NCBI GenBank assembly: GCA_002378195.1
Contig: DFRJ01000002.1
Location: 22,911-86,910, forward strand
Reading direction: 5' to 3'
DNA length: 64,000 bases
Source of the DNA: Patescibacteria group bacterium UBA3466
GTDB lineage: Bacteria > Patescibacteriota > Minisyncoccia > Phycocordibacterales > UBA918
A program made the translations under genes and the position numbers. The notes below the pieces were generated by a model. That model was not told where the DNA came from. It did not search any database and saw only the letters and a program-made list of their open reading frames with translations. Shown in pieces: positions 800 through 19,920 of the stretch. Positions within the stretch are counted from its first letter, which is position 1. Each line of letters opens with the position of its first letter.

Positions 800-1221
800 G
801 AACATCCTATCAGAAATGAAACAATAATACCAGTGCGTAAAGTTGTGTTCACAAAACAGTGTGATAGTGTACTTGGTGAATAGTTCTTTCGAACGACTGC
901 CCGTAAAAAGGGGTCAAGAGGGTAACACCCAGATGTGTAGCTAAGGTTAGGCACTGCCAACCTCGAGAGGTTGGGGTTAGTATCGAACGTACAGCTTTGC
1001 TGACATTGCTCAAGATAGAATCCGGAGCGCAACCAATGGTGCTACTGGTCCGGATACCGAAGCTCTAAGTTCATGATTTATGCGTATGTGACGATGTACG
1101 TAATGTGGTTCACCGATCGAGACACATGTGTGATCGAGTGCGACACCAGCTGTTGCCAAGCGATAAGCTGTCGCGAGGTAGACGTTGAAATCAATGTAGC
1201 GGTAGAGAGAACTATTCACTT
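800..1221 (+). other. Unassigned non-coding region with no credible ORF and no recognisable RNA-family motif; candidate structured ncRNA or long cis-regulatory leader
   Basis: About 420 bp with only short low-complexity ORFs on the minus strand and several local hairpins (e.g. AACCTC/GAGGTT, ATCCGGA..TCCGGAT). It ends in a strong intrinsic terminator at 1222-1262. RNase P P4, tmRNA tRNA-like end and SRP domain IV motifs were looked for and not found. Confidence 0.2.
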
Positions 1222-1262
1222 GCCCAGCAGGTCTGTATGACTGCTGGGCATTTCATTTTTAT
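1222..1262 (+). terminator. Rho-independent terminator (GCCCAGCAG-gtctgtatga-CTGCTGGGC + ATTTCATTTTTAT)
   Basis: Perfect 9-bp stem followed by a T-rich tract, about 90 nt upstream of the GT2 gene start. Confidence 0.65.
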
Positions 1263-1347
1263 ATATTTAGACACACTTAAAATGTGTGTCGAACTGCTTA
1301 AAATCGCTTTATTTTAGACCTAAATAGGTATATACTCGCTGATACTT

Positions 1348-13751: not shown

Positions 13752-15497
13752 TTATATGTTCTGCTCTTCATTTAGTTTCACAATCAGCTCGTCAAGCGAG
13801 AGTGATTGTGATTCTTCCTGGTCTCTCGACTCAAGAGTAACCTGATTAGCTTCTATGTCTTGGTCGCCAATCACGATGAAGTAGGGAAGCTTGTCCTTTT
13901 TCGCTTGTCTGATCTTCTTACCCATTGATTCTTTGGAGTCGTCAAAGGTGATTCTAAAACCAGCCTCTTCAAGTCTGGTGACTACATTTTGTGCGTACTC
14001 ATTGTGAGCTTCTGCTACAGGAATCACTGCTAGTTGCACGGGCGCGATCAAGAGTGGGAAGTTACCAGCTAGGTGTTCGATTAGTACTGCCGTGAATCTT
14101 TCTAGTGATCCAGCAATGGCTGCATGAATCATCACGATGCGTTCTTTTTCTCCGCTTTCGTTAACACAGGTCAAATCAAACCTTTCGGGCAGGTTACGAT
14201 CGGCCTGAATGGTGGCTACTTGATGTTTGCGTCCAATTGAATCGTGGGCGATGAAGTCTAGTTTGGGAGCATAGAAGGCAGCTTCACCTTCTTCAATGTA
14301 GTATTCGCAGTCACGACTTTCGGCAATTTCTTTCAGGAGGTTTTGCGCGTCATTCCATTCTTCATCAGTACCGATATAGCCGTTAGTATTTTGAGAATCT
14401 CTAAACGAAAGTCGAACCTTTAGATCAAAACCAAAGGTGCCATAGAAAGTGTCGATAATATCCCAGATTGATTCGATCTCCTCACGTAGTTGGGATTCTC
14501 TACAAAATACATGCGCATCGTCCTGAGTGATTGATAACACTCTAGTCAGACCAGCCAGTTCTCCTGATTGCTCAGCCCGATATACCATAGTGGTTTCGGC
14601 AAATCGTTTCGGCATCTCCTTATATGAACGGGGAACTGAATCGAAGATTTGCGTGTGACACGGACAATTCATCGGCTTCAGCACGTACTCCTCGCCGTCG
14701 CTATCTTCTTTAGCGCGTACCTTGAACAAGTCTTCACTGTACTTTTGCCAGTGGCCAGAGGTCTCATACAAAGCTTTCTTGGCAATGTGAGGAATTGTCA
14801 CCATTTCGTAGCCACGTTCTTTTCGTAGTCTTTGGACAAATTTGTCGATCTCTTGTCGTAACACAGTTCCTTTGGGAGACCATAAGGGTAACCCTGGCCC
14901 GACTAAATCAGAAAAGGAGAATAGGCCGAGCTCTTTTCCAAGCTTACGGTGGTCGCGTTTTTTAGCCTCTTCCATTTGAGTTTCGTAGGCTTCCAGCTCT
15001 TCTTTGGTGTCAAAGGCGATACCGTAGATGCGGGTAAGCATAGGATTTTTCTCGTCACCGCGCCAATAAGCACCGGCGATTTTATCGAGCTTGAAAGCAT
15101 CCATGGCAATATCCTGACTCGGATTTTCAGCGTGACCACCGCGACATAGGTCGGTGAAACCACCGCAGGTATATAGTGTGATGGATTCACCTTTCTCAGC
15201 GATTTCATTTATGAGTTCCAGTTTGTATGGATTGTTTTGATACATTTCTCTCGCCTCGTCAGCTGAGACTTCTTTGTGTTCCCATTCTGTCCATTTGTTG
15301 ACCATCTTCTTCATGGCCTTTTGAATAGCTTTCAGGTCAGCATCACCTGGCGCCTCACCATCACCAAAATCAAAGTCATAGTAAAAACCGTTGTCGATCG
15401 GGGGGCCGAGGGTGACTTTGGCTTCTGGGTATTTTTCTAACACTGCTGCCGCCAAGAGGTGGGCGAGAGTGTGTCGTTTCTTTTCTGATTGTTCCAT
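13752..15497 (-). CDS. thrS: Threonine--tRNA ligase, short form lacking the N-terminal TGS domain (581 aa)
   Basis: Second-additional-domain HxxxH-like start (RHTLAHLLAAAV). Class II motifs FRDSQ..., a zinc site (CPCH...) and a C-terminal anticodon-binding domain. Confidence 0.9.
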   Translation of the reverse strand: MEQSEKKRHTLAHLLAAAVLEKYPEAKVTLGPPIDNGFYYDFDFGDGEAPGDADLKAIQKAMKKMVNKWTEWEHKEVSADEAREMYQNNPYKLELINEIAEKGESITLYTCGGFTDLCRGGHAENPSQDIAMDAFKLDKIAGAYWRGDEKNPMLTRIYGIAFDTKEELEAYETQMEEAKKRDHRKLGKELGLFSFSDLVGPGLPLWSPKGTVLRQEIDKFVQRLRKERGYEMVTIPHIAKKALYETSGHWQKYSEDLFKVRAKEDSDGEEYVLKPMNCPCHTQIFDSVPRSYKEMPKRFAETTMVYRAEQSGELAGLTRVLSITQDDAHVFCRESQLREEIESIWDIIDTFYGTFGFDLKVRLSFRDSQNTNGYIGTDEEWNDAQNLLKEIAESRDCEYYIEEGEAAFYAPKLDFIAHDSIGRKHQVATIQADRNLPERFDLTCVNESGEKERIVMIHAAIAGSLERFTAVLIEHLAGNFPLLIAPVQLAVIPVAEAHNEYAQNVVTRLEEAGFRITFDDSKESMGKKIRQAKKDKLPYFIVIGDQDIEANQVTLESRDQEESQSLSLDELIVKLNEEQNI

Positions 15498-15604
15498 ATA
15501 TTTTCTTTTGAGTGGTCATTTATTGTGTCGGGCGCACGTCATTGTAGTGAGGATCGATAATGCGAATGTTTCTCTACACAGACACCACGGCACTCGGATA
15601 CAGT

Positions 15605-15748
15605 GTTTATTAATTCTAGACTTTTGACAGACATTGCGCAGTTCAATTTGCTTGGTTCGTACTTATTTGTACGAAAATTGAACGAGCATAGCGCCGAGTC
15701 CGCAGGAGACGAGGACGCGTGTCTGGAGAATGTCTAGAATTAATAAAC
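15605..15748 (-). promoter_or_regulatory. thrS 5' leader containing a 17-bp perfect inverted repeat (GTTTATTAATTCTAGAC ... GTCTAGAATTAATAAAC) enclosing nested 9-bp and 7-bp hairpins
   Basis: Arms at 15605-15621 and 15732-15748. Inside are GTTCAATTT/AAATTGAAC and TTCGTAC/GTACGAA stems. Located 110-250 nt upstream of the thrS ATG on the transcribed strand. Confidence 0.35.
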
Positions 15749-15773
15749 TAAATGATTAACTGATAAATAAAAA

Positions 15774-15816
15774 CGTCCGAGTAAAAATACGACAAAGTCA
15801 TATTTTTACTCGGACG
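15774..15816 (-). terminator. 16-bp perfect hairpin (CGTCCGAGTAAAAATA/TATTTTTACTCGGACG) followed on the minus strand by TTTTTATTTATC; intrinsic terminator
   Basis: Seen directly in the sequence. Together with the 15981-16010 hairpin it brackets a ~170-nt segment with no ORF. Confidence 0.45.
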
Positions 15817-15980
15817 ATCCAAATACTATTGGACGCGGTTCCACCGAGTTTCTAAGTCAGTATGCCAACTTAGCACTTCATTGTTACAGATTAGGGAAGT
15901 AAACTTCCGACTTGGCCCAGCGGTTGGTAGCCACTGCAATCTCTGTACTAACAATCTTATGACCGAAGATAGTTTCTGTC

Positions 15981-16010
15981 AAACGAAAACCGGTCCACAG
16001 GGTGGACCGG
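15981..16010 (-). terminator. Intrinsic terminator for the 16034..16573 gene (CCGGTCCAC-cct-GTGGACCGG + TTTTCGTTT on minus)
   Basis: Perfect 9-bp stem. A T-run follows on the minus strand, 24 nt downstream of the stop. Confidence 0.65.
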
Positions 16011-16033
16011 CGACGATTGCTGACAAGTTCAGA

Positions 16034-16686: not shown

Positions 16687-19600
16687 CTATTCTGGTCGAT
16701 CCGGTGGTGTTTCTAAATCTAGGGTTTGGGGATCAAGAGGTTTAATTTTATCGATCAGAATACTCGGCTCGTCATTGCGGAAATTAAGCTTACCTTTAAT
16801 TGCTACGCAAGTACCAGGCTCAAGTAAGTCTTTATAGGTGGTGTATGTTTCAGGGAAGGTGACAGTTTCTATACTGTCTTTTTGGTCTGATATTTTTACA
16901 AAGGCCATGCGGTCGCCTTTTTTGGTTAGTAGTTCTTTGACTATTTCTACTAGACCCGTGGTAACGACGGTCGTGCCTTTGTAGCCCTGCTTAACTTCGG
17001 CGATTTTAGGGCGTTTATCAGTTTCGGCTTGATGAGCATCAAGCGGATGTCCAGATACATACACTCCAAGTAGCTCTTTTTCCCAGAGTAATTTTTGGGT
17101 AGTGGTTGCTGGCTGTGAGGCTTCGAGAGTGAGACCGCTGACTTCTTCCATTCCGCCAAATAAAGAATCTTGATTGGATTCCTTGCCGGCTACATGCTCT
17201 TTATTGTAAGCCAGTAGGTTGTCTAGATTTGCAAACAAAACTCCTCTTTCGTCGAAGTTATCAAAAGCGCCAGTGGTAATCAGAGCTTCCATTGATTTTT
17301 TGTTTAGCCCACGGTCGTGGATCCGGCTCAAGAAATCCTGCATTGATGCAAAAGCGCCATTTGCTTTTCTTTCCGCAATAATGACATCGGCGATACCAGC
17401 GCCAAAGTTTTTGATAGTAGTGAGTCCAAAGCGGATAGTTTCTTTTCCTGGCACAACTGAAAAGTCAGCGAATGACTCGTTGATATCAGGTGGCAAAACG
17501 GTGATATTCATGCGCTCACACTCGTGAATAATTTCGGAGATTTTTTCTGTGTCACCAGAGTCAGCGGTCAGAACCGCAGACATGTATTCGACTGGATAGT
17601 TGGCCTTCATGAAGGCTGTTTGGTAGGCAACCCGTCCGTATGAGGCGGCATGAGCTTTGTTGAATCCGTAGGCTGCAAAAGGTTCAATTAGTTTCCAGAG
17701 CTCCTCAGCCTTTTGAGCAGTCATGCCATGTTCGATCAGACCGTTGAATAACTTGTCTTTTTCGGCAGCCATGATCTCTGGCACCTTTTTACCCATCGCT
17801 TTACGAAGCTTATCAGCCTCGAGCCACGAATAACCAGCCAGCTTAATGGAGATCATCATCACGTCATCTTGGTAAGTGATCACCCCGTAGGACACGTCAA
17901 GAATTTCTTCCATTCGTTCATCCATGTACGACACTAAAGCTGGATTGTGCTTACGTTCGATATAGGTCGGGATCATTTCCATTGGTCCTGGGCGATACAA
18001 AGCCACCATCGCGTTGATATCGTGAATAGTAGTCGGCTTTAGTTGCTTTAAGAAGGCTGTCATACCCGAACCGTTTAGCTGGAAAAGACCCATGGTTTCA
18101 CCGCGAGCCAACATGTCAAAAGTTTTTTGGTCGGCGAGATCGATATTTTCAATATCAATATCAACGTTGTGAATTTTTTTTACTCGCTTTACGGCATCAG
18201 CTAAGATAGCTAAGTTTTTGATGCCAAGGAAGTCAAACTTCAAAAGGCCGACTCCGTCTTCTCCAACGCTGTGCATTTCGTATTGAGTGATGTACTTTCC
18301 AGTTTTGGGGTCGGGCTGAATTGGTACGTACTCGTTTAGTGGTGCTGGAGCAATCACTACACCGGCGGCGTGCACTCCGAGGTGTCGAACCCGACCTTCA
18401 ATTTGTTTAGCTAGATCAATCACTTCACGGGACTCTGAATCTTTTTTGTACAACTCAGCCAGCTCGGGTTCAATATCGATGGCGCGGTCGATGGTCATTG
18501 GAAAACCTTGAGCCCCAAGCGGTATCAATTTAGCGATGCGGTCACCAGTAGCGTATGAATGTCCCAGAGCGCGAGCTACGTCACGTACAGCCGCGCGGGC
18601 CATCATGGTGCCAAAAGTGCCGATTTGCGCGACGTTATTTTCTCCGTATTTTTCCTTGGAGTATTCGATGATTTCATCGCGTCGGTTATCGGCAAAATCC
18701 ATGTCGATATCAGGCGCTGACGGACGCTCAGGATTGAGGAATCGTTCGAAGGGAAGTTTGTACTCAAGTGGATTTACGTTGGTAATTCCGAGTACGTAGG
18801 TGGTCAGTGATCCGGCTACCGAACCACGAATAGTGGTAAGGATGCCGCGCTCTCGAGCTTCGCGTAAAAGATCGCCTACCACTAAGAAGTATTTGGCGTA
18901 ACCTTTGGTCTTAATGATGTCGAGTTCGTAGTCGAGTCGCTCGGTAACGCTCTTGTCGTTGGTGTCTAGTCCGCGCCATTTCACACCTTCGTACGAGGTG
19001 ACTCGGAGTTCTTCGTCCGGGTCGCGGCCACTTTCAATTTCGTAATTGGGAAATACCCAGGCATCCATACCGAGAGTGATTTCGACATTACAAGCTTCGG
19101 CAATCTTTACTGTATTTGAAATTGCTTCAGGTACGTCTTTAAACCACTCTTTCATCTCCGCTTGAGTGGTAAACGAAAAGTTGTCACTGGCATCATGGTC
19201 AGCGGTGGTGTCTACGACACCACCGCTTTGAATCTTGATCATGGTTTCGCGGGCCAAGCGATCTTCGGGCTTTAGATAATAAATATCGTGAGCGGCTACG
19301 AGGGGAGTATTGGTTTCCTTGGCTAACTCTTTAATCTTTTCTTGATTTTCTTGGTGGTCGAATATTTCTGGGTGGTGCGATATTTCGAGGTAACAATTTT
19401 CGGCAAAGACACTTTTGTACCAATCAAGACGTTCAGCGGCCTGTTCTGGGTTAACGTCTTTTAGCGCTTGAGCTACTTCACCAGCAAAAGAGGGGATAAT
19501 ACAAAATAAATCATCCTTGTACTCTTTCAAAAGCTCTTCATCAATTCGCGGTTTGTAGTAAAAACCTTCGATATTTGAGCGGGTGACGAGCGAGATAAGG

Positions 19601-19920
19601 TTTTGGTAGCCCTTGAAGGTTTTGGCCAGTAAGACTAGGCGGGAGCGGGGTTTATCAATATTAACTTCCTTGTCGTGTCGTGTGCGAGGGGCCAAAAAAG
19701 CATCGAGGCCAATGATTGGTTTGATACCTTCGGCGGTACACGCTTTGTAAAAATCTATTGCACCATAGAGAGCACCAGCATCAGTGATAGCGAGAGCGTC
19801 TTGGCCATCGGCTTTGGCTGTTGCCGCGAGTTCTTTTGGGGTAGGCACAGCATTCAGGAGTGAATACATCGAGTGGGTGTGAAGATGGACGAATTCAGTC
19901 GTAAGCTTCGAATCGGACAT
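16687..19920 (-). CDS. dnaE: DNA polymerase III alpha subunit, compact form (1077 aa)
   Basis: N-terminal PHP domain (HLHTHSMYSLLNAV), polymerase palm/fingers region and C-terminal OB-fold region. Confidence 0.9.
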   Translation of the reverse strand: MSDSKLTTEFVHLHTHSMYSLLNAVPTPKELAATAKADGQDALAITDAGALYGAIDFYKACTAEGIKPIIGLDAFLAPRTRHDKEVNIDKPRSRLVLLAKTFKGYQNLISLVTRSNIEGFYYKPRIDEELLKEYKDDLFCIIPSFAGEVAQALKDVNPEQAAERLDWYKSVFAENCYLEISHHPEIFDHQENQEKIKELAKETNTPLVAAHDIYYLKPEDRLARETMIKIQSGGVVDTTADHDASDNFSFTTQAEMKEWFKDVPEAISNTVKIAEACNVEITLGMDAWVFPNYEIESGRDPDEELRVTSYEGVKWRGLDTNDKSVTERLDYELDIIKTKGYAKYFLVVGDLLREARERGILTTIRGSVAGSLTTYVLGITNVNPLEYKLPFERFLNPERPSAPDIDMDFADNRRDEIIEYSKEKYGENNVAQIGTFGTMMARAAVRDVARALGHSYATGDRIAKLIPLGAQGFPMTIDRAIDIEPELAELYKKDSESREVIDLAKQIEGRVRHLGVHAAGVVIAPAPLNEYVPIQPDPKTGKYITQYEMHSVGEDGVGLLKFDFLGIKNLAILADAVKRVKKIHNVDIDIENIDLADQKTFDMLARGETMGLFQLNGSGMTAFLKQLKPTTIHDINAMVALYRPGPMEMIPTYIERKHNPALVSYMDERMEEILDVSYGVITYQDDVMMISIKLAGYSWLEADKLRKAMGKKVPEIMAAEKDKLFNGLIEHGMTAQKAEELWKLIEPFAAYGFNKAHAASYGRVAYQTAFMKANYPVEYMSAVLTADSGDTEKISEIIHECERMNITVLPPDINESFADFSVVPGKETIRFGLTTIKNFGAGIADVIIAERKANGAFASMQDFLSRIHDRGLNKKSMEALITTGAFDNFDERGVLFANLDNLLAYNKEHVAGKESNQDSLFGGMEEVSGLTLEASQPATTTQKLLWEKELLGVYVSGHPLDAHQAETDKRPKIAEVKQGYKGTTVVTTGLVEIVKELLTKKGDRMAFVKISDQKDSIETVTFPETYTTYKDLLEPGTCVAIKGKLNFRNDEPSILIDKIKPLDPQTLDLETPPDRPE

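Follow-up and report, generated by a model that had tools for sequence, protein, structure and literature searches.

A putative lineage-specific non-coding cassette in a variable slot between the divergent tRNA-Thr and GT2 promoters of a marine Patescibacteria species

The stretch of DNA analysed here, 64 kb long and called the window throughout, carries near its left end a junction between a tRNA gene and a glycosyltransferase gene. The gene order around this junction is rpsB, tsf, a gene for a protein of 146-147 aa (15-443 in the window), tRNA-Thr, the GT2 glycosyltransferase gene, a gene for a 382-aa protein, pheS and pheT, and the same order is found in relatives. The tRNA-Thr(UGU) gene occupies 716-790 on the minus strand (ARAGORN; Rfam tRNA, 72.7 bits) and is transcribed away from GT2. 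A consensus scan placed a promoter-like site for it at 824-851 on the minus strand (TGAACA-16-TATTAT with TG), and the segment 805-836 aligns with a related locus, L031. The GT2 gene (PF13632) lies on the plus strand at 1348-2904, with its ATG at 1348. Tara Oceans and other marine assemblies contain 19 contigs that encode a 100% identical GT2 protein, and the next relative after these is only 88% identical. A preliminary description had presented 800-1262, between the two genes, as an ORF-free interval and as an exceptional spacer for this genome. Its non-coding character holds, but in its left ~50 nt (about 800-851) stands the promoter-like site from which the divergent tRNA-Thr gene would be read. 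The interval also has a counterpart, because a second ORF-free stretch of the window, 15498-16033, is a T-box leader on its sequence motifs (see below).

The coding potential of the interval is low by every measure applied. The longest ORFs that overlap 800-1262 encode 83, 69 and 55 aa, the first of them extending into the tRNA gene, and their codon-usage scores range from -0.17 to +0.11, whereas the 5th percentile for real in-frame 60-codon fragments of the genome is 0.18. Searches of the six frames of the region against Pfam gave zero matches, HNH included, and the six frames joined as one query matched nothing among 5.8 billion proteins. Moreover, the gene tables of ten contigs of the same species call no gene in the ORF-free stretch. 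The earlier statement that no plausible ORF is present is thus borne out by the small size of these ORFs, their foreign codon usage and the lack of any protein match.

Comparison with related genomes indicates what kind of place this junction is. We compared the window with loci from 80 GTDB species representatives, with 7 loci whose proteins are the closest (87-88% identity) and with 6 marine loci, all of which carry a GT2 orthologue. tRNA-Thr stands almost always just upstream of GT2, and the spacer between them measures 0 to ~1500 bp in most of these loci. Among the 63 loci with the tRNA upstream of GT2, it lies on the plus strand in 51 and on the minus strand, as in the window, in 12. The most informative comparison is with L031, in which GT2 is 85% identical, the tRNA is on the minus strand and the spacer is 585 bp long. 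The alignment of this locus with the window extends from the tRNA to position 836 and resumes at 1264, and the sequences in between are unrelated, since L031 holds an HNH gene on the minus strand in place of the 427 bp of the window. Alignments with L031 and L006 delimit these 427 bp (837-1263, plus strand) as a species-specific segment with flanks homologous to those of relatives, which we treat as a putative non-coding cassette. In other relatives with a minus-strand tRNA, the slot is empty (71-120 nt in three loci) or contains tRNA fragments (L010 and L095). Because the flanks align with L031 and the content of the slot differs among the relatives with a minus-strand tRNA, 837-1263 can be regarded as one state of a cassette slot between divergent promoters.

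In five of the loci, L031 among them, the tRNA-Thr/GT2 spacer contains an HNH endonuclease gene (Pfam HNH). These genes, found in five species, are free-standing, encode 127-138 aa with a Cys-rich N-terminal region and occur in either orientation, and the loci that bear them show about 65-71% mutual DNA identity. Sequence comparison points to the HNH gene being a mobile cassette. Elsewhere, spacers next to a plus-strand tRNA hold HNH, a PNPOx gene or other ORFs of 160-265 aa, and some related spacers carry tandem repeats and partial tRNA copies. The cassette of the window resembles the HNH homing-endonuclease cassettes in its position in the HNH slot of L031, in its size (~415-430 bp) and in its homologous flanks. 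It differs from them in having no ORF or HNH similarity in any frame and a higher GC content, and its terminator is on the strand opposite to the L031 gene. GC content is 46.8% in the cassette and 48.6% in its folded core (875-1220), as against 31-33% in the flanking promoter DNA, 44.6% in the window and 34-45% in the HNH-bearing spacers.

We considered a pseudogene of the relatives' HNH endonuclease and rejected it for want of residual protein or DNA similarity. A tblastn search with the HNH proteins of relatives against the window region gave E-values at chance level (557-nt database), local DNA alignments of the cassette with HNH cassettes scored no higher than shuffled controls, and six-frame Pfam searches were likewise empty. 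According to the preliminary description, an intact protein-coding gene in the homologous regions of relatives would mark this stretch as a pseudogene remnant. An intact HNH gene is present in the relatives' slot, yet the window DNA contains no trace of HNH. The cassette is not a recognisable pseudogene.

The DNA immediately downstream of the cassette behaves differently from the cassette itself. A conserved GT2 promoter block was delimited at 1264-1347 on the plus strand by blastn against relatives, comparison of upstream sequences and alignment. Its motif, CTTTATTTT-N13-GGTATATACTCGC, lies 3' of the terminator and is common to the 17 relatives displayed, irrespective of what stands upstream. 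The -10 box TATACT (1331-1336) is 11 nt before the ATG, and the distance from block to ATG is 6-11 nt in relatives. At many genes in the window, a -10 box (TATAAT, TATACT or TAAAAT) is found 7-11 nt before the start codon. Near-consensus -10 boxes without a Shine-Dalgarno sequence are seen at many genes, for example at 1331-1350, 16687-19920 (minus strand), 52806 and 57295, and the genome apparently makes frequent use of leaderless mRNAs. Because the block is conserved and this close -10 layout recurs in the window, the GT2 mRNA is very probably near-leaderless and produced from GT2's own promoter. The block also includes a palindrome, GACACAC-N7-GTGTGTC (1271-1291), which is partly conserved in L031 and L006 and may have an operator role. 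Read by eye on the minus strand, the block gives TTCGACA-N17-TAAATA, a promoter-like arrangement directed into the cassette.

This arrangement decides against one of the two readings that the preliminary description had offered, a riboswitch-type leader, which would respond for example to a second messenger and steer GT2 by switching between terminator and antiterminator. A terminator upstream of a polysaccharide-synthase-like gene invites such a reading, and a genuine T-box leader exists elsewhere in the window. Like the c-di-GMP and similar riboswitches found upstream of exopolysaccharide genes, the cassette precedes GT2 and ends in a terminator. Unlike them, it matches no aptamer at E <= 10, is not conserved with the gene and is separated from GT2 by the gene's own conserved promoter. 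Because this promoter block, with its -10 box so near the ATG, stands downstream of the terminator, 837-1263 should be no leader or riboswitch of GT2. Moreover, the cassette is absent upstream of every GT2 orthologue examined (~93 loci, blastn and nhmmer), only 1264-1347 being conserved. The proposal of a riboswitch-type GT2 leader is refuted by these results together, and we regard any such role of the segment as highly improbable.

Known RNA families were not found in the region either. A search of 780-1350 on both strands with Rfam 15 at E <= 10 returned only two chance matches, to a snoRNA and a miRNA, which overlap the terminator, and a scan of the window at Rfam gathering scores gave tRNA only. 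ARAGORN found no tmRNA, and inspection of the cassette by eye for RNase P, tmRNA and T-box motifs found none. The cassette is not a known housekeeping RNA (RNase P, tmRNA, SRP, 6S). The earlier failure to match any known RNA family by eye is therefore upheld by the Rfam scan, which gave neither an aptamer nor a housekeeping RNA on either strand.

These searches should be read with the lower sensitivity of Rfam in this lineage in mind, of which the window itself contains an example. The second ORF-free and strongly folded region, 15498-16033 on the minus strand, precedes thrS, the gene for threonyl-tRNA synthetase (13752-15497). It contains the T-box core AAACUCGGUGGAACCGCG, whose UGGA agrees with a U as the discriminator base of tRNA-Thr; a terminator hairpin (15774-15816) and a U-run come after the core. 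In Rfam the core scores 25.7 bits (E about 0.001), far short of the gathering score of 93, so that it would escape automatic annotation. Judged from these motifs, the region is a divergent T-box leader of thrS. It serves as an example of a true riboswitch-type leader in this genome and as a warning of the reduced sensitivity of Rfam in the lineage.

On the other side of the slot, the tRNA-Thr gene bears several marks of recombination. A 16-bp exact direct repeat, TCTCGGAGCCATCTGT, which comprises the tRNA 3' end and 4 nt of flank, was found by repeat search at 475-490 and 712-727 and is att-like. A third, partial copy lies at 557-568, and hairpin repeats occur between the two exact copies; two units of ~55 nt (480-534 and 557-611) each form a hairpin in which one arm copies the acceptor 3' strand of the tRNA. 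The repeats of 475-727 look like att-site scars or tRNA minihelix repeats. Similar repeat units are present in L095 and L219, and in another relative (L008) they make up an 8-copy 99-bp tandem array.

A second strain, L082 (GCA_002320355), records a replacement at the same gene. Its positions 1378-2062 correspond to 716-1400 of the window, and it is identical to the window over 764-2904. The 10 substitutions all fall in the 3' half of tRNA-Thr (727-763), and past the tRNA 3' end the strain carries unrelated DNA with a tetraspanin-like gene. In sequence terms, this is the mark that an integrative element leaves when it replaces the 3' half of the tRNA.

The orientation of the tRNA is variable as well. 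In marine relatives, the hairpin repeats, the tRNA and its promoter match the window as one inverted block. Among close relatives, tRNA-Thr flips and the flanking genes keep their orientation; partial direct and inverted tRNA fragments lie beside tRNA-Thr in L010, L095 and L219. Taken as sequence patterns, these suggest that the orientation of tRNA-Thr changes via repeated local inversion. The locus thus resembles tRNA-linked genomic islets and the att sites of integrases in its duplicated tRNA 3' ends, its replaced 3' half and its variable cargo. However, the cassette is on the 5' (promoter) side of the tRNA, whereas integrases insert at the 3' side, and no integrase is present.

The right end of the cassette is its clearest element. 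A plus-strand intrinsic terminator, with a 12-bp GC-rich hairpin and a U-tract, was identified at 1221-1262 by repeat search and folding. Its arms pair perfectly over 10 bp (1221-1230 and 1241-1250), the predicted energy of the hairpin (1221-1250) is -21.4 kcal/mol (z = -5.3), and UUUCAUUUUUAU comes after it. The signal has a functional orientation on the plus strand only, in agreement with the strong intrinsic terminator described earlier. A consensus scanner accepts loops of up to 8 nt, and the longer loop of this hairpin is the only reason why it was missed. From the end of the terminator to the GT2 ATG the distance is 85 nt.

No plus-strand promoter stands out in the region. A consensus promoter scan of the plus strand of 800-1262 found none, and only two -10-like hexamers occur in 791-1262 (AATAAT at 823 and TAGAAT at 1016), which is chance density. 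By eye, a candidate plus-strand promoter can be read at 842-870 (TTGTGT-N16-TGaTAGTGT, with the extended -10 at 861-870), but this is a weak candidate beside the near-consensus -10 boxes found at other genes.

The hairpin-rich character of the stretch was borne out in folding calculations, in which the plus strand of 800-1262 had a minimum free energy of -157.1 kcal/mol and surpassed dinucleotide shuffles (z = -4.1). Within it, a multi-branched core is predicted at 875-1220 on the plus strand, made of a closing helix and about nine local hairpins, one of them a predicted 7-bp stem with a CGAG loop cap at 957-974. The closing helix is a 16-bp inverted repeat found by repeat search and in the minimum-energy structures; its 5' arm lies at 875-890 and its 3' arm, which abuts the terminator, at 1205-1220. 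It includes two G.U pairs on the plus strand, and TTG stands immediately outside each arm. The core has a minimum free energy of -121 kcal/mol (z = -3.9) on the plus strand and -96 kcal/mol (z = -2.6) on the minus strand. After regression on GC, the plus-strand core ranks in the top 2.6% of 346-nt windows taken from the 64 kb, and the strand asymmetry of 25 kcal/mol is found in 14% of windows. The fold energy of the core is unusual, not extreme, among genomic windows, and its ensemble diversity and pair probabilities are ordinary, no better defined than those of average genomic windows.

A functional stand-alone sRNA is one reading of these features. It would be ~385 nt long, start at ~875 from the weak extended -10 promoter of 842-870, have the 16-bp helix as its closing stem, end at the terminator and act in trans or as a scaffold. 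Several details fit together here: the closing helix abuts the terminator, and the transcription start read by eye coincides with the 5' end of that helix. The fold energy of the core, the G.U pairs that favour the plus strand and a GC content above that of the flanks go in the same direction, and the identical cassette is kept in two strain backgrounds of a streamlined genome. As in intergenic sRNA genes with a Rho-independent terminator, the cassette is ORF-free, has a strong terminator and a stable predicted fold, and lies between divergent promoters. However, ~385 nt is long for an orphan sRNA, the promoter is weak and the structural ensemble is ordinary. In addition, no homologue or variant that could reveal conservation or covariation was found in the loci and collections searched. 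The fold of a single sequence does not count as evidence for functional structure (PMC8250186). We therefore hold the stand-alone sRNA as a tentative possibility that is rather doubtful, and put the chance that the cassette RNA is functional at roughly one in three.

The same terminator can also be explained as a leftover. An inert relic of a former plus-strand gene or mobile insertion, reduced to its terminator and to random self-complementarity, would account for the lack of an evident promoter and for a terminator placed as a gene's terminator would be. The slot of relatives holds genes of similar size in either orientation (HNH, 127-138 codons), and an open frame of 73 codons, which contains the ATG-started 55-aa ORF, ends within the terminator hairpin. 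This explanation is weakened by the comparisons, in which neither protein nor DNA sequence showed any likeness to HNH genes and neither Pfam nor the 5.8 billion proteins gave a match, and by a GC content that is higher, not lower, than that of HNH cassettes (34-45%) and of the adjoining intergenic DNA. Small genomes usually delete dead DNA, which also speaks against it. A relic is accordingly conceivable, although we would not expect it.

The inverted repeat suggests another kind of origin, a MITE-like non-autonomous element with terminal inverted repeats of 15-16 bp (876-890/1205-1219), a 3-bp TTG target duplication on their outer sides and 314 bp enclosed. At the DNA level the repeats match at 14 of 15 positions with TTG on both sides, and the size, the lack of ORFs and the strong folding are typical of MITEs, as is the combination of terminal inverted repeats and short flanking direct repeats in 344 bp of non-coding, self-pairing DNA. 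The element would also sit in an insertion hot spot. However, a 3-bp flanking repeat is expected by chance in 1 of 64 cases, no related transposase or insertion sequence accompanies the cassette, and the inverted repeats do not enclose 837-872 or the terminator, together ~80 bp of the species-specific DNA, so that the orphan terminator would be left unexplained.

Searches for further copies bear on the MITE-like element and on the other readings alike. No second copy of the cassette was found within the 64-kb window. Blastn and nhmmer against the 80 GTDB, 7 closest-protein and 6 marine loci gave matches only to the tRNA, its flank and the GT2 promoter; nhmmer with 800-1262 as query gave nothing at E <= 10 in the related loci, and blastn against phage and plasmid records gave no match. 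In viral contigs, the inverted-repeat 15-mer had single matches in about chance number, and two internal 18-21-mers had zero. A degenerate 20-mer that covers both arms had one chance match in a metagenome collection, which apparently does not include L088, a JGI contig with the 3' arm. The ten contigs of the same species that were compared are all 100% identical across the region (764-2904), without a sequence variant.

Three contigs from other assemblies of the species (L085, L086 and L088) begin inside the cassette, one at 1004 and two at 1055. These starts may stem from a repeat, from variation in the population or simply from one set of reads that was assembled twice; the first of these would be in keeping with a MITE. 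We give the MITE-like origin a slender chance.

In our best reading, which we hold with about even confidence, ~837-1263 is a lineage-specific non-coding cassette in a variable slot between the divergent tRNA-Thr and GT2 promoters. The tRNA-Thr/GT2 junction would be a recombination hot spot in this group of Patescibacteria, where the tRNA flips, tRNA fragments and att-like repeats accumulate and the cargo differs by genome. In the species of the window, the slot holds ~430 bp of unrelated, GC-richer, self-complementary DNA that bears its own plus-strand terminator. Transcription of the cassette on the plus strand would yield about 235-425 nt of non-coding RNA with its 3' end at this terminator, and the terminator would shield the GT2 promoter from cassette transcription. 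The cassette probably forms a short transcription unit of its own, closed by the terminator.

This reading has to be weighed against four points. No plus-strand promoter stands out from -10-like hexamers at chance density; the ensemble is no better defined than in average windows and the strand difference is not rare among them; no second copy, homologue or variant that could speak for mobility or for selection on structure was found among the sequences searched; and a lone plus-strand terminator would be expected from a decayed plus-strand gene as well.

A bolder extension of the cassette reading, for which we see only a slim chance, is a new class of structured RNA of ~385 nt. It might even represent a selfish or mobile element of the RNA-only kind, in competition with homing-endonuclease genes for the slot adjacent to the tRNA. 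So far, the cassette is known from one globally distributed marine Patescibacteria species.

The present analysis disposes of a misleading riboswitch hint at an exopolysaccharide-type gene and otherwise carries little weight as it stands. The gap that had looked so conspicuous is a variable cassette slot beside tRNA-Thr, seen in one of its states. If a discrete RNA is indeed made from it, this RNA would join a very short list of sRNA candidates from a streamlined Patescibacteria genome, and the slot, otherwise a place for homing endonuclease genes, would be an example of one with non-coding cargo. More may be learned from the entire locus than from its insert, since the flipping tRNA, the att-like repeats and the swapped cassettes speak of plasticity in very small genomes.
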